Assembly: GCA_963719035.1 (NCBI GenBank)
Contig: CAVRAO010000005.1
Location: 1-35,969, forward strand
Origin: Methanobacteriota archaeon
GTDB lineage: Archaea > Halobacteriota > Bog-38 > Methanoflorentales > Methanoflorentaceae
Reading direction: 5' to 3'
Length of the DNA: 35,969 nucleotides
Of this stretch, positions 10,471 through 35,923 are shown piece by piece (position 1 is the stretch's first letter; each line of letters opens with the position of its first letter). The notes under the pieces were generated by a model, which was not told the origin of the DNA, did no database searches, and was given only the letters and a program-made list of their open reading frames with translations. The position numbers and the translations under genes are program-made.

Positions 10471-11340
10471 TTAATCTGACCAGCTTTCGGCTGTCGCATC
10501 TGCGGGCTGCGGCCCGGTCCCTACCACTTTTATGCTCCGCACCGCATCCGCGACGTCACGTAGCTCCTCAGAGGTGAGCACCACACGTTGTTGGATCGCT
10601 TGCGCAGACGGGTCATTCGCCATACACTCAAGCGAAAAGGGCGTCTCATCATCGACCCGCGCACCCTCAAATCCGGCATCACGAATGGCCTGCAGATAGG
10701 CGTCTTTTAAGATCGCCCCAGATAAACATCCAACATACGCGTCAATCGACTGTTGCACGGCATCAGGCAGTTCCTTGAGTACGACGATATCGGAAACGGC
10801 AATGCGGCCGCCAGGCTTGAGTACCCTGAATGCTTCGCTAAAGACGGCCCCTTTATCGGGGGTCAGATTGATCACGCAGTTAGAGATCACAACATCAACA
10901 GAGTTGTCTGCAGCAGGCAGATGCTCAAGCTCCCCGAGCCTAAACTCGACGTTTTCGTAGCCACCAGAGCGCGCGTTCGCCCTCGCCTTGTCGATCATAG
11001 CGGGCGTCATGTCAACGCCGATAACCCTTCCCCCTTCGCCTACAATGTTGGCAGCGAGGAAACAGTCAAACCCAGCGCCCGACCCTAAGTCGAGCACGGT
11101 CTCGCCTTCTTTGAGTGTGGCTAACGCAGTTGGATTTCCACAACCAAGGCCAAGATTTGCCCCATCAGGGACCGAGCGTAGCTCTTCATCCCTGTACCGA
11201 ACGGCCTTGCTAAGCTCGTAAGCTCGATCGGCGCTGCCACAGCAGCCGCCTACTGGGATAAGCGTCAGGGGGTCGCGTTCACGCTTCGCAACCTTTGCAT
11301 ATGCGTCTCTCACGACGCGTTTAACCTTGTCTTCTTCCAT
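10471..11340 (-). CDS. arsM: Arsenite S-adenosylmethionine methyltransferase
   Basis: [34 protein letters not shown] and YVGCLSGA: the conserved ArsM cysteines are present. Confidence 0.95.
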
Positions 11341-11358: not shown

Positions 11359-11622
11359 TTAGTGTAAGCCCATAAAGATGGGGCCGAGCACGTCTTTTAC
11401 CGTTCCTGAGAGCGCATCAGCTTTGATAAGCGAGATGCAACAGACCGATCCGTCACGCTCGTGGCCCACCAGAGCTAGCTTATCTCCTGCGTGGATACCA
11501 GCGCGCTCGCGCAGCTCTTTTGGCAGCACCATCTGTCCGCGCTCATCAATGCTAATGACTGCTTCGACCTTGCAGGTAGTGCTATCGCTTTCAGGCGTAC
11601 AACAAACGTCTTTATCAGTCAT
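11359..11622 (-). CDS. AbrB/SpoVT-fold regulator resembling the HgcAB-associated protein (HgcC)
   Basis: CKVEAVISIDERGQMVLPKELRERAGIHAGDKLA...VCCISLIKAD; N-terminal CC; 18 bp upstream of arsM. Confidence 0.8.
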   Translation of the reverse strand: MTDKDVCCTPESDSTTCKVEAVISIDERGQMVLPKELRERAGIHAGDKLALVGHERDGSVCCISLIKADALSGTVKDVLGPIFMGLH

Positions 11623-11893
11623 GACAACCTGAACGTACTTTGATGTTCAGCCTACTTAAATATTTCTGTAAAATCAGAATAATCGGAATAATGTGCAGAA
11701 ATATAGGATTTCGAGAACGATAGTTTATCTAGCGCTCCGACGAACCTCGTTGCCGAGTGAGCGGTATTGGGTTTTACCAACTGAGCGTATTCCACTAACC
11801 CCGCGATTACTCCACTATTTTCAAGTTACATTTCCTATGACGATTTCAAAGACGTATCGAATTGAACGACGTAAATCCACAGCTATAAATAAC

Positions 11894-11921
11894 ATCAATA
11901 TATGCAAATATGAATATATAA
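11894..11921 (+). promoter_or_regulatory. Putative ArsR operator (site A), just downstream of TATA-like ctataaata
   Basis: ATCAATATATGCAAATATGAATATATAA, 28/28 identical to 33621-33648; imperfect palindrome ATATAT-N10-ATATAT. Confidence 0.75.
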
Positions 11922-12000
11922 GGGCATTATAATGTAGGGCACATTGTCTGGAGGTAATGGGCTAGCCGATAATTGTTCACATATTTTCGAGGTAATCAGA

Positions 12001-12960
12001 ATGCCACGATCGGCCCAAAGGATGACATTGTTGCTGCTGTCTATCATTGCTGCATTGTTGCTCGTAAGTTCCACAATAATTAATACGTCGGCAACCACGA
12101 TCGTCCAACTCCAGCCTAACACGGCTAATTCGGGTGACAAGGTGTTAGTGTCAGCCAACATGGCGCGAAATGCAAGTACGGTCACGCTTTCGTATTACGC
12201 TGATTTAAACAAGAACGGCAAGGAAGACGACGGCAGCGCGTCGGTGAAAATAGCGAACGCCACTGATGGACGCGCAAACGATGCTGACAACTCTACCAAT
12301 GGTTTCATACTTTTCTCGTGGCGCACTCCACAATTCGCCCCTGGGCAGTACGTCCTCAAAGTTGAAGATCCAAATGGACCGACAAGAACCACTGTTTTGA
12401 CTGTACAGAATGCTCAGCTCAAGCTGATACCAACGATCTACGGGCCAAACATCAAGACGGACAAAGGACTGATTAAACCAGGAGACACTTTTTCTGTAAG
12501 TACGCAGGTGACTGGTAACTGCCGCCTTTGTCATACGACAGATAATCCGACGACGCAAAACCCAGGCGTAGATGAACAAAAGGTCAAAAAGGCGTTTTCT
12601 GCCGATTTAAGTCAAATTACAGGGAGTCCAAGCGATACTGCCGTTGCTCCCGATTATGTGCATCACCTTTTAATCCAATGGATGCCTCTTGCGAGCAAAA
12701 CGCTTGCCGATAATAAGACTGTCAGTATCACCGTTACTGGCACTAATCCTGCTGGCAACTTAACAACACAATCGATAGCGTTCGCCGGCGTAAACAAAGC
12801 AGTCAATATACCACCAAAGTCAACAAACGAAGACAATCAGAGCAATACTGCTTCAGCACAATCAACTGGTTCGACAAGCAGCCCACTGCCTGGATTTGAA
12901 GCAGTGTTTGTCGTGTTAGGATTGACTTTTGTAGCTTATTTGGTGAATAGAAGGCGATAG
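12001..12960 (+). CDS. Secreted PGF-CTERM surface protein with a single CxxCH motif
   Basis: Signal peptide, beta-rich domains, DLNKNGKEDDG Ca-loop-like motif, CRLCH at 12520-12534, and C-terminal LPGF-TM-RRR (archaeosortase signal). GAGGT RBS before ATG 12001. Confidence 0.85.
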   Translation: MPRSAQRMTLLLLSIIAALLLVSSTIINTSATTIVQLQPNTANSGDKVLVSANMARNASTVTLSYYADLNKNGKEDDGSASVKIANATDGRANDADNSTNGFILFSWRTPQFAPGQYVLKVEDPNGPTRTTVLTVQNAQLKLIPTIYGPNIKTDKGLIKPGDTFSVSTQVTGNCRLCHTTDNPTTQNPGVDEQKVKKAFSADLSQITGSPSDTAVAPDYVHHLLIQWMPLASKTLADNKTVSITVTGTNPAGNLTTQSIAFAGVNKAVNIPPKSTNEDNQSNTASAQSTGSTSSPLPGFEAVFVVLGLTFVAYLVNRRR

Positions 12961-12962
12961 TT

Positions 12963-13549
12963 ATGCGAAAACATATTTCCACAGTAATCGTGGTCGGACT
13001 ACTGCTTGTGGCGATGATCTTCGCTGCAGGGTGTACCTCCAGCGATAACTCACCTACTCCAAGCGTCCCTTCGGCGACAAGGGATCCAAAGTTCGTTCCA
13101 AAAAACATATCAGGATATTGTACCTACTCGGACCGCTCTGTGGGTATCTCGATACATACCCCTCTTCGTGGCAAGCGAAAAATGGTTCAGGCTACGAGAT
13201 CGTTAGTTTTAACGTGAGTGGATCCCCCAGTATGTCGTTTACGATTTATACCCAGGACTTTTCAGGGACATCGACAACGCTTAACGACTTCTCGCAGAGT
13301 GCGCTGCCAACGAATTTGACTAACTTCAAGCTGCTCAACTCCACCAATACCACGCTTTCGGGTTATCCTGCCAAGAAGCACGTATTTACATTCATGACTT
13401 TCGATAGTGCGACTGCACAAGGCATGCTTCAGCTCACTTTGGTTAACAGAACTGGTTATATGTTGCTGTATGTAGCGACGCAGGACGTTTACCCGAATTA
13501 CCTGGGAATTGTGCAAAACATGACGCAGTCGTTTAACGCAGTCAAGTGA
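12963..13549 (+). pseudogene. PsbP/Mog1-like fold lipoprotein, one frameshift near 13155
   Basis: FAAGC lipobox in 12963-13217 joins GISI-x-YPSSW...TTLSGYPAKK...GYMLLYVA...IVQNMTQSF in 13118-13549. Confidence 0.7.
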
Positions 13550-13671
13550 CTAGGCCAAGGCACCAATCCCAACACTGTTTCCAAATCCGGCGGTTGACTT
13601 TTCGCAGTCTCTGCGCTATCTGGAAAAAAAACAGAAAAACTACATTTATTCAGGAAAGAGAGGGATAACAA

Positions 13672-14202
13672 ATGTTCCTCAGTGACTATACCGTAAGGTT
13701 AGTTCTCTCAGACTGCAATCCTTCATCTCAAAAGGTGAACGCCCTCGTGGATCTATCTGAGGACATTAGCGAGGTACTTCCCTATCTCAACACCGTTCTG
13801 AAAGGATTGCAGTATGATCAGGATGAGAAGTTCTTAACCGTGAGGAAAGAAGGGCGCTTGATTACCTTCAGGTCAAAACAGATAGCAGTCGCTAAACTAG
13901 AGGATGAAAATGAAGCAAGGTCGGTCATGGAAGAATTGAAAGAGATTGTGAATGCGACTTACGCGAATAGAGATCATATCAAACCGACCTATAGTTCTAG
14001 ACCGGCCCCCCGGCCTCTTGAGATCTTTAAACTCATGCCGGGAAATAACTGTAAAGAATGTGGGGAGCCAACCTGCATGACCTTCGCTTTAAAACTGGGT
14101 AATGACGAAGTGAAACTAAGCCAGTGTCCGTTGCTCTTCAAAAAAGAATTTGAAGTAAACCGTTCTATACTAAACGAGATCTTGCCCGACTTGGAAATAT
14201 GA
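13672..14202 (+). CDS. Fe-S-binding protein with C-terminal putative 4Fe-4S domain (COG4871-like)
   Basis: DISEVLPYLN N-domain; MPGNNCKECGEPTCMTFALKL...CP four-Cys motif. Confidence 0.85.
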   Translation: MFLSDYTVRLVLSDCNPSSQKVNALVDLSEDISEVLPYLNTVLKGLQYDQDEKFLTVRKEGRLITFRSKQIAVAKLEDENEARSVMEELKEIVNATYANRDHIKPTYSSRPAPRPLEIFKLMPGNNCKECGEPTCMTFALKLGNDEVKLSQCPLLFKKEFEVNRSILNEILPDLEI

Positions 14203-16108: not shown

Positions 16109-17479
16109 TTATCCTCTTCTCATAAGCATGTAAGTGGCTCCGGCGATCACTATTGGTACGCCGAGTCCTAACAACGAAAACTCTAGTATGGGCTGTGGTG
16201 GTGAGCTCGAAACGCTATCAGTTTGAGCTGCTCGGAAAGATAGCTCCAGCACTGAGTCGTTCCCTAGGGCATCTGACGCACTGGTTGTGCCGATTACCTG
16301 CTTAGAGGCTGTCACTTGAGTGGGCGTCGAAGTAGCCTTACTAATGGGGGCGATTTTTGTCGGTTGCGGCACTGCCTTCACCGTTGGCACTGCCTTCACC
16401 GTTGGCACTGCCTTCACCGTTGGCACTGCCTTCACCGTTGGCACTGCCTTCACCGTTGGCACTGCCTTCACCGTTGCCGTCGCCGTAGGGGTTGCCGTTG
16501 CCTTCACTGTGCTCACTGCCTTCACTGTGCTCACTGCCTTCACCGTTGGCACTGCCTTCACCGTTACCGTCGCTTTAGGCGTTACCGTCGCTTTAGGTGT
16601 CGGCGTTACTGCCTTCGATGCTGTCGTTCCAGAAGACGCTGCTGTTGTGGCAGGATACGTCTTTTGCAGCTCGTTGACGATCTGCTCAAATCCCAGTTGT
16701 TTGTATAAAGCTAGGCCGTTGGAATTTATGCTGCACCACACGTGAAAATGAGTGAAACCGACCCCATTAGAATAGGACCAGTCGAGCATTGACTTGTAAC
16801 TCGGTGATCCCCCATTCTTCGAGTTGGTTAGTATCGGGTTGTGATCGACCCCTTTAGAACTCCCCCACACCCCGGCAAGGATTCCGTTCGTCTTACCTAA
16901 CGCGGCTGATTCCTTTGCTCCCTGCTGGATGTACTGCCACTCTGACGGATAAAAGCTCTCCCAGCTGTTCATCACCGTGCCTGACTGGAGGTGCATGTTC
17001 TTCCATAAGCCGCACTGGTCACAGTTGTAGTTAACGTAGCCCTTGAAGTACCGCGCGAGATAGTTGGCGTCACCTTCACGACCGCCTTCGGACGCGACGT
17101 ATTCCCATCCCGCAGCTTTGAGTGATTGGAAATATGAGGCAAAGTTTTCGATTGGAACGCTCTTCTTCTTGCCCGCGTCCCAAATGGGGATTTCGATATC
17201 AATAATCCCCTTCATACCGAGCGATTTGATCTTTGCGAGCTCTTCCTTGTACGGCTTCTGATCACGAACGACAAGATGGACCGTGGAGAACCCGTGCGCT
17301 TTAAAGTAGTCAAGCGAGCCATCCCATATCATCGCTTGGCCACAGCCAACATGATATTCAATCGGGCGGGTTGCCGCAGCCGGTTTGGGCGCGACAGGGG
17401 CCGCTGTTGTCGGCGTCATTACAGCTGAAAAGATAAATAACGAAAGAATGCTGCAAGTTGCTAGGGTCTTCTTTTTCAT
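16109..17479 (-). CDS. Secreted, C-terminally anchored protein with an unknown N-terminal domain and Thr/Lys/Pro repeat stalk
   Basis: Signal peptide, ~240-aa aromatic-rich globular domain, (TVKAVP)n stalk, and PILEF-TM-RRG tail (PEF-CTERM-like). Confidence 0.85.
   Translation of the reverse strand: MKKKTLATCSILSLFIFSAVMTPTTAAPVAPKPAAATRPIEYHVGCGQAMIWDGSLDYFKAHGFSTVHLVVRDQKPYKEELAKIKSLGMKGIIDIEIPIWDAGKKKSVPIENFASYFQSLKAAGWEYVASEGGREGDANYLARYFKGYVNYNCDQCGLWKNMHLQSGTVMNSWESFYPSEWQYIQQGAKESAALGKTNGILAGVWGSSKGVDHNPILTNSKNGGSPSYKSMLDWSYSNGVGFTHFHVWCSINSNGLALYKQLGFEQIVNELQKTYPATTAASSGTTASKAVTPTPKATVTPKATVTVKAVPTVKAVSTVKAVSTVKATATPTATATVKAVPTVKAVPTVKAVPTVKAVPTVKAVPTVKAVPQPTKIAPISKATSTPTQVTASKQVIGTTSASDALGNDSVLELSFRAAQTDSVSSSPPQPILEFSLLGLGVPIVIAGATYMLMRRG
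16368..16475. repeat. Six perfect 18-bp tandem units, with degenerate units continuing to ~16615
   Basis: (ggcactgccttcaccgtt)x6, encoding TVKAVP on the minus strand. Confidence 0.95.
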
Positions 17480-22803: not shown

Positions 22804-24962
22804 TCAAGCGTACCCATTAGAGGCATGCTCAAGCGCCGGGTGGTTTATCTTCTCCAAGTACTCCGCTAGCTCTTCAGCGTCTGTCGCGATCGTTTCATCA
22901 GCGATCTTTTCTACCAAATCGGACAATCCGACCTCTTTTGCCCGCTTCTCAAGATTTTCACGCAACGCTTCTTTCAACTCCTTGGGCATCCAGACGATTC
23001 TCGCGATGCCGCCATCCGCACGTATAAACTTCTTGCTCGTAATGAACTGCCTCCCGATACCGACGAACCCGGGCGTTTGATTTCCACACCGACCGACCCC
23101 GCAAGAGTCGAGAACTTCGCGCCGATAGGGGTCATGTCGGTGTATTCTCGGTTGACCACGATGACCCCTTGCAAGTCACTGCTGATCGCCACAATACATT
23201 CAAAACACCCACACGACGTTTGCGGGTCCTCCATCATGGTGGTACTGATTCATTCGCTCGATGCGGCCATGGGTAAGCTCTCGTACGGCTTCGTTAACGT
23301 TTGTCCACTGGCCTTTCTGCTCATCGATGGCAGCGCCCTTTTCAACCGGCTTATTCGGTCCGTTTGAATCGATGCTAAACCCCGCAGCCGCATCAAGCCA
23401 ATTCAATGCGCCACACAGCCCTAGGCGTTCAGGAGAGATGATGCACACGTGGCACGGTGCAAAGCTCTGACACAACGTACACGCGTAGAACTCGTTGACG
23501 CTTTCATCGGTCAGTCCAGCGACCCTCCTGTCCCTTTCAGCGTATGACTCGTGGGCCTCTGGTAAGTGCTTTTCCACCTCATTCTGGTCGGTGATGATTG
23601 TAACTTGTAGCCGGCTGATAATTTCCCCGAACTCTTCCTTCATTTTATGAGATAAAGGATATCACCGAAGTGCTTGAAGCGTAACCCGCTGGCCACACTA
23701 TTCTTACTTAGTCGCACCCAGAGTAAGTTTCTCTGACCCGTATGCCACGCGCCCTCTGCGTAATTGATGAACTGGTGGATGCGCCGTTCAACGACGGGTT
23801 CAAACTCCTTTTTCATGTGCTTGCCGTATACCTCAACAAATATCCCAAGTGCTGATACGCTCCCCTCGTCCATCTCATCGACGTCCTTCCCGATCAGCGC
23901 GACATGACCGTCCTTAACCGCGTCGGCGTTGCGGATCTTCACGAGCTCAAACACCTTTGTCTTGGTTGGACCTCCACACTCGACGTAGGTCTGGGGCTTG
24001 CGCACCATTTCTCCCTCGAAGGCGAGACCATACGCTGCCGGCAGCGACACTTGGCCGAATTTCACCTCCATATCCCGTATCTCTATGGCGTGCGCGACGA
24101 TCTGACTGTAGTCTTTTTCTACTTCGTACTTGCCCGGCACTTCCTCCACATCTTGATCGGTGATCGTCGGCGAATCGTTGAACATCGCTGCGAACGCAAT
24201 CGAAGCCTTGATGTCGTCCACCAGCCCCATCTGGACAACAACTACCTTCGGCCTTTTGACAAGGTAATTGTGGAGTTCTGCCCTATCCCCTGGTCGGATG
24301 TTACCAAAGGTCAATGCCGCTCTGATAGCAAAACTCAAAGCGTGAACAGCTTGTGTGGACTCGCCAACACAGAATAGTAATCTATCAATTCCTTTTTGCT
24401 CACCAATCTCGATCCCAGCTTCTTTGATCTGCTGTATCGTATCGAAGGTGGGAATTACGAGCATGCCCTTACTCTGGCAGTCCCTGATGATCTTTGCTAG
24501 TAGTTTAGGGTCCTTCGCCTTTCCTACCAACACTAAGACCCCAGGTATGGTATCATCAACGAATGAGATGCCTAACCTCCGGAGCACTTCGTCGGCAATG
24601 AACCCGGTGTATGGGGTATCCGCATACGGGTCAGGATTGTCGATGTACTTGAGGGCCTCAACGATTTCTGCAGCGACCATAGTCGCTTCTCCTGAGGCCA
24701 CAGCGTTGTCAAACGTGTACTCCTCTCTAATCTTGCCCCTCACTTCTCCAAGAAGTCGCGGCAACTGCGCGAGTTTCGTCACTCTTTCGCCTGTCCACGC
24801 GGTGATGCATGGAAGATAGTACCCGGTGCTTGGGTATCCAATCTCCTTATCACGCCCGTGTTGACGTATCGCCTTATTGAGGAGCTGATCTGCGTATCCA
24901 GTCGCGATAATGGCCCCGTCGATCGCTTTCTTGTAGAGCGCAACCTGAGAGAGTTTCAGCAT
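22804..24962 (-). pseudogene. acsB: Acetyl-CoA synthase (ACS), full-length bacterial AcsB type, ~720 aa, at least three frameshifts
   Basis: N-terminal domain GYPSTGYYLP, ERRIHQFINYAEG, and A-cluster ligands CTLCQSFAPCHVC...LCGA and SCGCFEC; WMPKELKE near the end. Frame changes at ~23645, ~23242 and ~23086. Confidence 0.92.
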
Positions 24963-25013: not shown

Positions 25014-25030
25014 TATATATGATTATATAT
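25014..25030. promoter_or_regulatory. Palindromic site upstream of acsB
   Basis: tatatatgattatatat, 16/17 identical to 25368-25384. Confidence 0.45.
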
Positions 25031-25366: not shown

Positions 25367-25386
25367 ATATATATGATCATATATAT
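25367..25386. promoter_or_regulatory. Perfect 20-bp palindrome upstream of arsR (candidate autoregulatory site)
   Basis: ATATATATGATCATATATAT, running into ATATATGCAGAT, which resembles the operator half-site; 34 bp before the arsR ATG. Confidence 0.6.
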
Positions 25387-25420: not shown

Positions 25421-25798
25421 ATGAAGATAAGTGACCCTATAAAATCGCTTCAGAACTTTGCAGAGGCATACGACATCAACGTCGAGGAGCGTAAAAGTAC
25501 GCTTAACGAAATTGCCGAGGAGATTGATACGCGCGACACATACAAACAGGCACGCACGCTCAAGGCAGTAGCTGATTCAACGAGGCTTAAAATTATCAAG
25601 GCTCTGAGCCAACACGAACTCTGTGTTTGTGAACTCATGTTGCTGCTCAATGCACAGCAGTCTGCTGTGTCACATCACCTGCGCATACTCAAAGACGCCA
25701 ATCTCGTGGTGGAACGACGCCAAGGCAAATGGAGCTTCCACCGACTTGCGGGCGATCGCCTTGGAACGCTTTTAAGAGCGCTTGACGAGTTGGAGTAG
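25421..25798 (+). CDS. arsR: ArsR/SmtB family metalloregulator
   Basis: KAVADSTRLKII, ELCVCEL alpha3 metal-binding motif, SAVSHHLRILK, RRQGKW. Confidence 0.95.
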   Translation: MKISDPIKSLQNFAEAYDINVEERKSTLNEIAEEIDTRDTYKQARTLKAVADSTRLKIIKALSQHELCVCELMLLLNAQQSAVSHHLRILKDANLVVERRQGKWSFHRLAGDRLGTLLRALDELE

Positions 25799-25920: not shown

Positions 25921-25948
25921 ATTGATATATGTTAATATATTGATATTT
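25921..25948 (+). promoter_or_regulatory. Putative ArsR operator (site E)
   Basis: ATTGATATATGTTAATATATTGATATTT, 23/28 identical to site D (32322). Confidence 0.6.
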
Positions 25949-30057: not shown

Positions 30058-30102
30058 CGATTAGCAGGCAGCCGTTGATGCGAACCCGCAGCTATATATA
30101 GT

Positions 30103-30130
30103 ATTAATATATGCAAATATGTTTATATAT
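30103..30130 (+). promoter_or_regulatory. Putative ArsR operator (site C) after TATA-like ctatatata
   Basis: ATTAATATATGCAAATATGTTTATATAT, 24/28 match to sites A/B. Confidence 0.72.
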
Positions 30131-32269: not shown

Positions 32270-32321
32270 AACCGTGTGTTGCTTTGTTCGAGAGTTTCGT
32301 CACTCCACAACTTTATTTTAT

Positions 32322-32349
32322 ATTGATATATGTAAATATGTCTATATAT
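32322..32349 (+). promoter_or_regulatory. Putative ArsR operator (site D)
   Basis: ATTGATATATGTAAATATGTCTATATAT, 22/28 match to A/B, preceded by the same tccaca + AT-rich box. Confidence 0.68.
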
Positions 32350-33068: not shown

Positions 33069-33487
33069 ATGAACAAGCAGACAATCCCGTTCCTGTGCAC
33101 GCACAACGCCGCACGCTCGCAGATGGCTGAGGGGTTCGTCAACGCACGCTTTGAGGATCGATATATAGCGCGCAGCGCAGGAAGCGAACCGACTGGGGTG
33201 CACCCATGCGCCATCGAAGTAATGGCCGAGCTCGGCATCGACATTTGAGACGGCATGCCAAATCATTGAGCGAGTTTGATGATGCGCCATTTGACTATGT
33301 TGCTACCATGTATACTGACGCCGCGGCGAACTGCCCAATTTTTCCTGGCGGAGCAAATTACCTCCACCATCCCTTCGACGATCCAGAAGCAGGTGGCGGA
33401 TCTGGCCTCGAGCAATGCGCGTCTTTCAGATACGTGCGCGACCGAATCGGAGAGTGGATCGAGGCCACATTTTCTGATGATCCGTGA
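33069..33487 (+). pseudogene. arsC: Arsenate reductase ArsC, copy 2; frameshift at ~33246
   Basis: [10 protein letters not shown] 1-bp deletion relative to copy 1 creates TGA, and the first resolving Cys is replaced (TMY vs TIC). Confidence 0.88.
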
Positions 33488-33620
33488 GCGTATAGCGATA
33501 TCAGTCGAATACGATTTAACGCTAAAAGTCCAGAGCTAGTTTGATGTGTCGTTTCAGTTACGAGTTTTTTCGTTACGAAGCGTGCGACTTGAACGACGCG
33601 AATCCACAAGTATATATAAA

Positions 33621-33648
33621 ATCAATATATGCAAATATGAATATATAA
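33621..33648 (+). promoter_or_regulatory. Putative ArsR operator (site B) after TATA-like tatatataa
   Basis: Identical to 11894-11921. Confidence 0.78.
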
Positions 33649-33679
33649 ACCAGCGCGTAACGTGCGAGAGGGTTACAAC

Positions 33680-33937
33680 GTGGAAGTCAAGATTCTGGGA
33701 ATGGGATGCGCAAGGTGCAACAGCCTTGAAAAGATGGTTCGCGATGTGGTCGCCGAACAAGACATTGATGCCACAGTAAATAAGGTCACGCAACAGCGGG
33801 ACATATTAGCATACCCTGTTTTGGCCGTTCCTGCTCTCATCATTAATGAAGAGGTCAAGGCGTTCGGTCGCCTGCCAAGCAAGAAAGAGGTTGCCGATTG
33901 GCTTATTCAAGCTCAGCAAACCCAAGTGAAACAATGA
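33680..33937 (+). CDS. MTH895/ArsE-like small redox-active disulfide protein
   Basis: VKILGMGCARC...VPALIINEEV...GRLPS; GAGAGGG before GTG 33680. Confidence 0.9.
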   Translation: MEVKILGMGCARCNSLEKMVRDVVAEQDIDATVNKVTQQRDILAYPVLAVPALIINEEVKAFGRLPSKKEVADWLIQAQQTQVKQ

Positions 33938-34353
33938 ATGATAGTTTAAAAACGTTAGTAGCGTTAGCTTTGCTGAGCGTGCTCATAATAAGTGTGAGCG
34001 GCTGCACTGCTGAGACCTCAGGAAACACGCTAAGCTTCGTAGGAGGCACGTCGCACCCCTCTGACATAACCACTCTCTTGAAAAAAGGCCCTGTCTTGCT
34101 GTACCTCGGCGGTAACTGCACAAGCTGTGCGGAGCAGAAAGTGATCATTTCAAACCTCGAGAAACAGTAGAACGGGACTGAAGTAACGATACTGCGGATT
34201 GACCCATTAAAGGATACAACGCGCAAAGACGTGAATTATGGCTTGACGACCATCCCGGAAACTATTGTGGTACAGAGTGATGGCGCAGTTGCGAAAAGCG
34301 TTGGATTGACCGATGAGCAGACCCTGAAAAACACGATTGAGGCGGCACGGTAA
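33934..34353 (+). pseudogene. Lipoprotein thioredoxin (CTSC) interrupted by an in-frame TAG at 34168
   Basis: VSGC lipobox and NCTSC. The same frame continues after the TAG (NGTEVTILRID...YGLTTIPETIVV...VGLTDEQTLKNTIE) to TAA 34353. ATGA and TAATG overlaps with both neighbours. Confidence 0.85.
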
Positions 34354-35078
34354 TGGAGATAAACCCTTTAATCGCTTTTGGAGCGGGACTTGTCAACGTG
34401 AGTAAAATGCGTACCTATCGTTCTTCCAGCAGTCATGGCATCATCGATAGACCGTGGGAGATGGCGACCGCTCGCAATCGTTCTGGGGCTTAGTATGTCG
34501 TTCACCGCTATGGGGTTGTTAGCGTCCGCATTCGGCTCAGCCTTTCAGAGCGTTAAAGGTTATCTGGACGTAATTGCCATCATCATCGTGATGTTCATTG
34601 GCGTGTGGATGTTGTTCGACTTGCTGCTTCCGTGTCCAACGCTCCGCGACTGGGGTTTGTCGATGCCGTCTCGAAACGATCTTATAAGCTCCCTACTGAA
34701 GGGGTCTTCAGCGGTTTGTTATTCGGGATGTCGCTTGGGATCGTCTGGTTGCCGTGCACCGGTGCTGTATTAGGCGCGATTCTTACATGGGTCGCAGCAC
34801 GTGGAAATGTGCTCACGGGTGGCCTCCTTCTCATGGTATACTCGCTCGGATTCGCTGTCCCTATGCTAGCCGTTGCGTATTCGACGAAGGTGTCATCAAC
34901 TCTCGTTGCCAAGACTGCAAATACTATTTGGATAAAACGAGCTGCAGGATTGGTGCTTCTTATCGTTGGCGTCTACCTGATAAACCAGCGTTTTTTTCTG
35001 TTTAGGCTGAGAAGGCTTGCTCGTCATACTGACGCAAGACGTAGTGGCACATTTTCTGGAGGTACAGAGTCAGCGTGA
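34353..35078 (+). pseudogene. ccdA: CcdA-type thiol-disulfide transmembrane protein, two frameshifts
   Basis: MEINPLIAFGAGLV / CVPIVLPAV...GLSMSFTAMG / GIVWLPCTGAVLGAIL...YSLGFAVPML; frame changes at ~34405 and ~34635. Confidence 0.82.
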
Positions 35079-35923
35079 ACGCTTATGAAGCCTCCTACTA
35101 TCCGACAGATCAAGGAGAGCAATACAAGAGACAAGCTTTTCAAGCTGATCTCCTCAAGCTAACCGTCGCTGTCGTTGCAGAGTTGGTTATTTTTCTCCTC
35201 TGGTTTGATGGACCGGTGAGAGAGCGCTATGAAATCCTCGTCCACATAGCGCTGCCCATATGCATCGTCCTGCCGATCTTAAATTATCGTTACCTGATCG
35301 TGGTGCCGTTCATAGCCTTCTTGCCCGACATGGCGCGAGTGTTTGATGTCGATATCTCACATTCCCTCGTTATTTTACCGCTCGTCTTCGTAGCAGCCTT
35401 CGTGCCTTTTGTGCGTCGCCCGAAGACTGCACTGATCGCAGGTTATGCAGCCTTCGCTATCTGGGCAAGCCATCTTATTGTTGATGCACGTAAGTATGCG
35501 ATTATTGAAAATTTTAGTGGCTATCCGTGGAGCGATCTAGTGTTTTATACACTCCTTTTAACCGTACTAGGCTTTTTGCTTGTGCAGGTCTTGCGTTTCG
35601 GCGATGCCCGTTTCAAGGGGGACGGCTACGGACCTAGAGACAGCAGTTTAAGCAATCGGACTCCGCTAAGCAGTCAGCCTCCGACAGATGTTCATCGCTT
35701 GGACGATACTATGTCGAGCGCTATCTCAAGGCCGCGGTTATCTAGAACGATAGAAGTGACTGCACCTGAAGGGACCTCTGAAAGATCCAGAGGTAATAAG
35801 GCGAGGGATCCTTCGAGTTCATCTGATCATAAGCTGCAATTCGATTATGACGGGTTTGTTGTCGGGGATGTGACCTCAAAAAAGGCGCTGAGGAGCAAGA
35901 TAAGGGGTAAGAAAGGCTCATAG
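35075..35923 (+). CDS. Membrane protein, YdjM-like putative metal-dependent hydrolase
   Basis: H...FLPD...SHSL...SHLIVD motif spacing within TM segments; GTGA overlap with ccdA. Confidence 0.6.
   Translation: MNAYEASYYPTDQGEQYKRQAFQADLLKLTVAVVAELVIFLLWFDGPVRERYEILVHIALPICIVLPILNYRYLIVVPFIAFLPDMARVFDVDISHSLVILPLVFVAAFVPFVRRPKTALIAGYAAFAIWASHLIVDARKYAIIENFSGYPWSDLVFYTLLLTVLGFLLVQVLRFGDARFKGDGYGPRDSSLSNRTPLSSQPPTDVHRLDDTMSSAISRPRLSRTIEVTAPEGTSERSRGNKARDPSSSSDHKLQFDYDGFVVGDVTSKKALRSKIRGKKGS

Follow-up and report, generated by a model that had tools for sequence, protein, structure and literature searches.

The 35,969-nt stretch of DNA analyzed here (contig CAVRAO010000005.1 of assembly GCA_963719035.1, from an archaeon of the Methanoflorentaceae; hereafter, the window) raises the question of why a gene encoding a cell-surface protein with a PGF-CTERM tail (12001-12960, forward strand; 319 aa) should be headed by an exact copy of the 28-bp site that precedes a thioredoxin-CcdA operon on the same arsenic island. 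A previous interpretation of the locus from its letters and open reading frames (ORFs), here termed the sequence-only reading, had proposed that the protein is the extracellular client of the co-regulated CcdA/thioredoxin relays, that it is either a monohaem cytochrome or a dithiol protein binding As(III), and that it represents a new kind of ars gene. The results presented below lead us to interpret the PGF-CTERM protein (hereafter, the PGF protein) as a lipid-anchored monohaem cytochrome c with two immunoglobulin (Ig)-like domains and as a client of the thioredoxin (Trx)-CcdA relay, a reading to which we assign a probability of roughly 0.55. The window is an entire contig (C5) of a 2.19-Mb genome assembled in 13 contigs and 91% complete. 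It was compared with the 24 genomes of its class, which fall in two genera, and with 80 metagenome loci and 29 genome loci carrying the PGF gene, the CxxCH motif being scored in 77 and 26 of these loci, respectively.

The ORF, its alignment and an AlphaFold model divide the PGF protein into a signal or anchor helix (residues 1-30), two Ig-like domains (31-138 and 139-270), a linker of Ser, Thr and Asn residues and the PGF-CTERM segment (approximately 295-319), in which the sequence PLPGFE is followed by a hydrophobic stretch and by RRR. Export is predicted from this tail and from the hydrophobic N-terminal helix, which spans residues 3-30 in the model, and the genome encodes an archaeosortase A (C2:347216-347962; 246 bits against a TIGR04125 cut-off of 75). 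As the sequence-only reading had remarked, the protein has only two cysteines, C174 and C177, both within CRLCH, and H222, H223 and M228 lie further downstream. The codons of C174-R-L-C177-H178 (12520-12534, forward strand) encode a putative haem c attachment site, an assignment based on its invariance among homologues. A search of 5.8 billion protein sequences returned 100 matches, almost all of about 320 aa, and C-x-x-C-H is retained in 98 of them, mostly as CR[LIVM]CH and down to 32% identity, as it is in all 77 metagenome loci and all 26 genome loci scored. The motif is thus conserved among homologues, as the client hypothesis had anticipated. In an alignment of 46 sequences the invariant residues are N173, C174, C177, H178, T184, W227 and K233; H223, which is almost invariant, is a possible distal haem ligand, and M228 is not conserved. 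PGF is retained near the C-terminus of 97 of the 100 homologues, a precomputed PF18204 match being recorded for 26 of them, and the window protein itself falls short of an expectation value (E) of 0.01 in Pfam. Since a search of all representatives at 50% identity matched only 17 proteins, including one full-length cluster and a 425-aa relative that also carries the motif, as CALCH, the family must be regarded as narrow.

In the whole AlphaFold model (predicted local distance difference test, pLDDT, 81.5), two Ig-like sandwiches stand in tandem and are followed by a disordered linker of Ser, Thr and Asn residues and by a terminal helix; the second domain modelled alone reaches a pLDDT of 87.5, with its lowest confidence directly after the CxxCH loop. 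Fold matches are generic Ig, S-layer or adhesin domains with Z scores of 7.9-9.2 at best. The top match of the whole model is the Nitrosopumilus maritimus S-layer protein (8c8k_A; Z 9.2, root mean square deviation 4.0, 194 residues aligned), and the search with domain 2 produced no match at Z of at least 8 (best 7.9), its matches being generic Ig-like ones only. Domains I-II of MtrC were considered as a fold relative and set aside, because their Z scores (7.0-7.4) lie within noise.

The sequence-only reading had found no haem lyase in the window, and this is correct. Searching the genome, on the other hand, reveals intact genes for CcsB/ResB (335 aa) and CcsA (354 aa, with a WWD-type motif) lying side by side at C2:324339-326477, unlinked to the thiol relay. 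CcsA passes the System II equivalog model TIGR03144 with 254 bits (cut-off 187.6). Within the class, ResB is present in 24/24 genomes and CcsA (Pfam PF01578) in 23/24, the exception being a genome that is 88% complete. Of 301 sampled genomes of the phylum, 23 pass the System II model, 21 of them from the family of the window organism, and a second family presents full-length System II matches just below the cut-off in 13 of 15 genomes; the Pfam ResB model also matches in the Methanosarcina acetivorans control. CcmE, a component of System I, was not found in the 91%-complete genome. In System II, CcdA and ResA reduce the apocytochrome before haem is attached. A rough census of exported CxxCH ORFs in the genome yields the three paralogues of the PGF protein, a 786-aa Ig-repeat protein and one short ORF, to which CxxCK variants add a few more. 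The presence of an intact System II synthase in the genome, together with its conservation throughout the class, favors the cytochrome over the dithiol binder among the two identities originally offered for the protein.

The 28-bp site upstream of the PGF gene belongs to a larger promoter cassette (11858-11921, forward strand), identified as repeat family D3 and by alignment of five copies, which comprises a AATCCACA box, a TATA-like TATAAATA (11884-11891) and the operator-like 28-mer. In agreement with the identity claimed beforehand, the 28-mer ATCAATATATGCAAATATGAATATATAA is found in exact copies at 11894-11921 and 33621-33648, both on the forward strand, and 100 shuffles set the expected number of such matches at 0. 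The likeness extends beyond the 28-mer to 64 nt with 89% identity (11858-11921 versus the second cassette copy, at 33585-33648), and two looser 64-nt copies, at 30067-30130 and 32286-32349, bring repeat family D3 to four copies in the window. The sites within these last two, detected by the repeat and by a position weight matrix (PWM), lie at 30103-30130, ahead of a gene identified with Pfam as a thioredoxin-CcdA fusion, and at 32322-32349, ahead of a carboxymuconolactone decarboxylase (CMD, AhpD-like) gene and the second arsC of low-molecular-weight phosphatase (LMWP) type. A looser site at 25921-25948 (repeat family D8), upstream of a DUF2703-CMD-ArsP gene group, scores 24.9 with the PWM, as compared with 40-43 for the others; all three of these sites are on the forward strand. 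Across the 2.19-Mb genome, the core ATATATGYAAATAT is restricted to five promoters, each of them on the island, namely those of the PGF gene, the Trx-CcdA fusion (30103), the AhpD-like and ArsC unit (32322), the Trx91-lipoprotein thioredoxin-CcdA operon (33621) and a PsbP-like lipoprotein gene (C12:78685). Because these five promoters have a common site, all five units would switch together.

The fifth of these promoters is informative as to the nature of the site. It lies beyond the point on contig C12 that is equivalent to the end of the window, where a copy of the cassette, with three mismatches in its 28-mer, runs directly up to the start codon of a gene for a 207-aa PsbP-like lipoprotein (site and gene together at C12:78685-79332). 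Since no gap is left there between the 28-mer and the ATG, the TATAWAT that immediately precedes the 28-mer must serve as the TATA box. The transcript start would then fall within the 28-mer, which is the position expected for a repressor site. The arrangement at the PGF gene itself is borne out by independent data: a 2-kb metagenome contig that is 99% identical to the window contains the site, the PGF gene, an intact lipoprotein gene and the gene for an Fe-S protein, and in three further runs there are contigs that span the site with the sequence on either side of it. A different element precedes arsR (25421-25798). This perfect 16-bp palindrome, ATATATGATCATATAT, located at 25369-25384 (37-52 nt ahead of the arsR start), has a sole locus in the genome (C5 and its C12 duplicate), with a near-copy at 25015, and is probably the operator of ArsR itself; it differs from the 28-mer but has the half-site ATATATG in common with it.

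Gene order in related organisms provides the link between the PGF protein and the thiol relay. In 11/80 metagenome loci and 1/29 genome loci, representing at least four sequence variants, the PGF gene lies directly behind the genes for a 91-aa thioredoxin (Trx91), a lipoprotein thioredoxin and CcdA, and it is usually followed by the gene for a 176-aa Fe-S protein; in one locus (L122) the copy behind CcdA is the housekeeping one described below. The operator is found 45-46 nt before Trx91 in all nine operon-type loci for which upstream DNA is available (PWM 39.7-44.2), and the 28-mer is kept in at least four diverged promoter variants whose flanks differ. In 5/9 of these loci, moreover, a gene for a Cys-rich AbrB-type protein diverges from a point about 80 nt from the operator. 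The AbrB-type gene of the window (11359-11622) is placed likewise, and the window therefore shows a rearranged form of the same module. Given these operator-headed operons, the near-invariance of CxxCH and the confinement of the core to the island, the PGF protein is likely to be a client of the CcdA/thioredoxin relay, as had been proposed. The association with arsenic genes that the same proposal implied is another matter: the adjacency to CcdA stands, but an ars-type gene is found within only 10/80 metagenome loci, and one of these matches (ArsM, 32%) is weak.

The distribution of the family argues, in fact, against a new kind of ars gene. PGF family members were found in 24/24 genomes of the class, and 53/80 metagenome loci present a housekeeping context, in which a methyltransferase gene lies directly downstream and CcdA and ars genes are absent from the neighborhood. 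These housekeeping copies have a conserved promoter and leader, and most of the 29 genome loci are of this type, preceded at about 3.3 kb by a conserved gene for a membrane protein. Besides the window copy, the genome under study has two further paralogues, namely a housekeeping copy (C8:244872-245830) with 82% DNA identity to the window copy and CRLCH retained, and a 422-aa relative with CALCH on contig C6. The BLASTN match between the window and C8 (244872-245868) begins at 11965, and the resulting 5' leader (11965-12000, forward strand), in which a Shine-Dalgarno GAGGT (11989-11993) stands 7 nt ahead of the ATG, matches that found ahead of the housekeeping copies in relatives. Hence, the window PGF gene is an accessory duplicate of the housekeeping gene in which the promoter has been swapped. 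The island Trx-CcdA fusion likewise has a housekeeping twin on C8 (80% DNA identity), three genes from which a PsbP-like lipoprotein is encoded.

Under the cytochrome interpretation, the invariant N-C-R-[LIVM]-C-H would be the attachment site for one covalent haem. The PGF apoprotein would be exported, and both of its cysteines would be kept reduced by electrons passing from Trx91 in the cytoplasm to CcdA in the membrane and from there to the lipoprotein thioredoxin outside; CcsB/CcsA, the System II synthase, would then attach haem and archaeosortase A would anchor the finished protein. As regards the window copy, the housekeeping gene was duplicated together with its leader and the copy captured the island-specific promoter cassette, whose 28-mer sits between the TATA-like box and the presumed transcript start, where an archaeal repressor would bind. 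The five-unit switch would probably be triggered by thiol-reactive stress such as arsenite, and the likely repressor would be either the divergent Cys-rich AbrB-type protein or the ArsR of the island. Arsenite attacks vicinal thiols, which makes an inducible spare relay with a spare client plausible, although oxidant stress fits equally well. What is observed in this scheme comprises the conserved motif, the order of the genes, the presence of maturation genes and the duplication event, whereas haem binding, repression and the inducing signal are inferences. Extended to the whole lineage, the same reasoning would imply that these archaea universally make a lipid-anchored, Ig-fold monohaem cytochrome c through System II and that some populations keep a second copy within, or under common control with, a stress-inducible Trx-CcdA relay on an arsenic island, a generalization that we put forward tentatively and at slightly less than even odds.

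Several results weigh against this interpretation, the most serious of which concern the supply of haem. AhbA and AhbB have no match in the 91%-complete genome or in one of the closed genomes from its genus, and ferrochelatase is absent from the matches in all class genomes (0/24), so that the strain may not make haem. AhbA/B are present in 11/24 class genomes, and another closed genome of the same genus contains an ahbC-ahbD-ahbA-ahbB cluster in which AhbA and AhbB score above their cut-offs and AhbC and AhbD are best matches below theirs. Candidates for AhbC and AhbD in the window genome were rejected, being sub-threshold radical-SAM matches only, the best of which (C13:23397-24917; 262 bits versus 500) is not in an ahb cluster. 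The ahbCDAB cluster is patchy within one genus (6/17 genomes), CcsBA and the CxxCH protein being kept throughout, and this suggests haem scavenging or a relaxed need for haem in some strains. Among the remaining difficulties, Pfam and NCBIfam scans assign the PGF protein to no family, and no solved cytochrome stood out in a Foldseek search or in two wide VIA-align searches with the whole model and with domain 2. That most copies (53/80 loci) sit in housekeeping surroundings, apart from CcdA and ars genes, is a further point on this side, and no run on record as RNA contains 11600-13700; arsenic control of the PGF gene is a supposition drawn from the neighboring genes. Finally, in M. acetivorans, where ccmG and ccdA are adjacent, the published account (PMC9084895) describes CcdA and CcmG as dispensable for cytochrome maturation under reducing conditions, so that the presence of a dedicated relay does not by itself establish that its client is a cytochrome.

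That haem-synthesis genes were not found in this genome also speaks for another idea, namely that the protein is free of haem and that its reduced CxxC, aided by His178 and His223, captures As(III), Sb(III) or a soft metal on the cell surface; it would act as a sponge or sensor and be kept reduced by the CcdA relay. The island itself, with ArsM, ArsR, ArsP, Acr3 and two LMWP ArsC proteins, is congruent with such a role, and so are the operator that the PGF gene has in common with the AhpD-like/ArsC unit and the ars-type genes of the 10 related loci mentioned above, even with one match among them being weak. A metalloid-binding function does not, however, sit well with a main copy that is a housekeeping gene in 24/24 genomes and lacks ars linkage in 53/80 loci; furthermore, the invariant His after the second Cys is a haem c signature for which an As(III) site has no need, and scarcely any protein would remain as a substrate for the conserved System II synthase. 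We therefore consider a dithiol binder unlikely. The synthase is also unexplained if the protein is instead a relay domain resembling DsbD-alpha. In that case a DsbD split into three parts would hand electrons on to further proteins at the surface, the lipoprotein thioredoxin corresponding to gamma, CcdA to beta and the PGF protein to the remaining part. DsbD has an Ig-like N-terminal domain, domain 2 of the PGF protein is modelled as an Ig-like sandwich, and the Trx-lipoprotein thioredoxin-CcdA-PGF operon matches the three-module make-up of DsbD. Yet the PGF protein has no Pfam or NCBIfam match to the DsbD N-terminal families, its CxxC with an invariant His departs from the cysteine spacing of DsbD-alpha and most of its copies are not beside CcdA, all of which makes a relay domain improbable. 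DsbD was not among the 50 matches listed for each of the two wide fold searches, although the folds may still be alike.

An ordinary structural protein of S-layer type would be in line with the top fold match, an archaeal S-layer protein (8c8k_A, Z 9.2). According to this view, CxxCH would be a quirk of the lineage (a structural disulfide or a metal site) and the 28-mer a duplicated strong promoter devoid of co-regulation, and a block of promoter DNA has clearly been duplicated in the cassette, over 64 to about 140 nt. The 28-mer is nonetheless conserved in at least four diverged promoter variants whose flanks have changed, and its occurrence is limited to a single island of coherent function. 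Two architectures, moreover, link the gene to CcdA, either in one operon or in separate units with the same operator, and CxxCH is invariant over a range of 32-99% identity, so that we deem a purely structural role quite unlikely. None of these alternatives accounts both for the invariant His and for the conservation of a synthase with nearly no other substrate.

The genes surrounding the PGF gene add to the picture of a specialized island, the ars complement of which comprises ArsM, ArsR, ArsP, Acr3 and the two LMWP ArsC proteins. Divergent from the PGF gene, a Cys-rich AbrB-type DNA-binding protein of the HgcC family is encoded at 11359-11622 on the reverse strand (NF040962, 118.7 bits against a cut-off of 70; AbrB domain), followed in the same direction by an ArsM-like arsenite methyltransferase (10471-11340, reverse strand; PRK11873, 344.5 bits against a cut-off of 263; Pfam Methyltransf_31). 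Its position makes the AbrB-type protein a candidate regulator of the cassette, possibly a metalloid- or thiol-sensing one of an unstudied type. The pair formed by this protein (HgcAB-associated HgcC according to NCBIfam) and an ArsM-like protein occurs twice in the genome, the second time at C12:38340-39517, and a literature search on HgcC returned only unrelated acronyms. At the other end of the window, the operon headed by the second exact 28-mer encodes the MTH895/ArsE-type thioredoxin Trx91, the lipoprotein thioredoxin and CcdA (33662-35010, forward strand, with an approximate end), and these genes, frame-broken in the window, are intact on C12 (91, 151 and 218 aa, respectively). Its last gene (35075-35923, forward strand) encodes a 282-aa membrane protein without known family, a relative of which is encoded some 3.3 kb ahead of most housekeeping PGF genes.

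Downstream of the PGF gene, 2 nt separate its stop codon (12958-12960) from the ATG (12963) of a PsbP-like lipoprotein gene (12963-13549, forward strand; lipobox LVAMIFAAGC), the assignment of which derives from an atlas match (score 0.95) of its paralogue, the 207-aa lipoprotein encoded on C12, with which it has 32% identity over 79 residues. The short gap noted in the sequence-only reading is real, but the gene is frame-broken in the window: its 587 nt lack a G behind 13156 that is present in the contigs of 4/4 independent runs and in C12. The lipoprotein gene is therefore taken to be intact in nature (195 aa) and its break to be a consensus error; the C12 copy has a 1-nt defect of its own at 13126. 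A constant partnership between the lipoprotein and the PGF protein was considered and rejected, since the lipoprotein gene lies directly behind the PGF gene in only 1/80 loci. A more frequent neighbor is the 176-aa cytoplasmic protein with a C-terminal Fe-S motif (Pfam PF04060) encoded at 13672-14202 on the forward strand, which is found behind island-type copies of the PGF gene in 10/80 metagenome loci and in locus L010. Its Fe-S motif resembles the N-terminus of the gamma subunit of acetyl-CoA decarbonylase/synthase or of RnfB, and its own N-terminal domain has no family match. On C12, directly after the 207-aa PsbP-like lipoprotein, a protein of the SOUL haem-binding family (C12:79696-80286; Pfam E 3e-48) is encoded, with a fasciclin-domain protein next; the SOUL protein could be relevant to haem handling in a genome where ahbAB was not found. 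Elsewhere in the window, a 456-aa ORF (16109-17479, reverse strand) contains twelve 18-nt tandem repeats (16329-16634) and has a 97%-identical partial paralogue on C8.

The frame breaks of the window deserve a cautionary remark. Contig C5 duplicates C12:42447-78425 at 99.4% identity, the two differing by 164 substitutions and 48 single-base indel columns, and frame breaks in the window must consequently be read with care. Examples of split genes are cdhC (23200-24962), arsC (33073-33544) and the lipoprotein thioredoxin and ccdA genes (33898-35078). We rejected the possibility that such genes are pseudogenes on account of this duplication, with its 48 indel columns, and of the independent runs that restore the frame; they probably represent consensus errors or strain noise.

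Common usage places Bog-38-type peat methanogens among the cytochrome-free methanogens. The presence of a universal exported CxxCH protein and a complete System II would, accordingly, change current models of the cell surface and electron flow of this lineage. If the PGF protein, a candidate c-type cytochrome of novel fold and context, is confirmed as such, it would constitute a new structural class of cytochrome c and would show System II in a role not previously described for the Archaea; a literature search of limited coverage, without bioRxiv supplements, returned no description of the PGF family or of System II in the lineage. Bog-38 corresponds to Candidatus Methanoflorentaceae (Rice Cluster II), portrayed in the literature as the dominant methanogen of northern peat, and the lineage is described as one of obligate hydrogenotrophs in a preprint (10.1101/2025.08.21.671631). 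A surface cytochrome would offer these dominant peat methanogens a possible route for exchanging electrons with their surroundings, as well as a possible means of sensing redox or metalloid stress at the surface. The five promoters with one 28-bp site would define, in addition, a testable archaeal regulon in which thiol-reducing relays and a haem protein of the cell surface are tied to resistance against arsenic.

One of the closest parallels among known systems is the thiol branch of System II in Bacillus subtilis, which runs from TrxA through CcdA and ResA to ResB/ResC. CcdA, an exported lipoprotein thioredoxin, ResB/CcsB and CcsA are all present in the window genome, and in relatives the candidate apoprotein is encoded in the CcdA/thioredoxin operon. 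The host here is an archaeon, however, the synthase genes lie apart from the relay and the client is a beta-sandwich protein instead of a helical class I cytochrome. An exported c-haem motif combined with an archaeosortase-dependent PGF-CTERM lipid anchor has been reported for small multihaem cytochromes of anaerobic methanotrophic archaea (ANME) (Chadwick et al. 2022, PMC9012536). These are described there as multihaem proteins matured by Ccm (System I), whereas the window protein has a single CxxCH in an Ig-like fold and occurs in methanogens that the above-mentioned preprint (10.1101/2025.08.21.671631) characterizes as obligately hydrogenotrophic. The predicted beta-sandwich monohaem cytochromes c of Ignicoccus hospitalis and the 'cluster 47' candidates of Methanocella (Kletzin et al. 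2015, PMC4429474) likewise resemble the PGF protein in being archaeal, exported and non-helical with a single CxxCH, the Methanocella candidates stemming from genomes with only one recognized maturation gene. They are, nonetheless, unrelated to it in sequence, none is reported to be tied to a CcdA operon or to an operator, and the motif of cluster 47 comes right after the N-terminal helix in proteins without PGF-CTERM. Lastly, the island as a whole recalls ArsR-controlled ars operons with an MTH895/ArsE-type thioredoxin, given the presence of ArsR, ArsP, Acr3, ArsC, ArsM, the ArsE-type Trx91 and a common cis element. The cassette element is unlike the arsR palindrome ATATATGATCATATAT, though, the divergent neighbor is a Cys-rich AbrB-type protein and not ArsR, and the surface protein encoded in the window belongs to a family that is not specific to ars systems.

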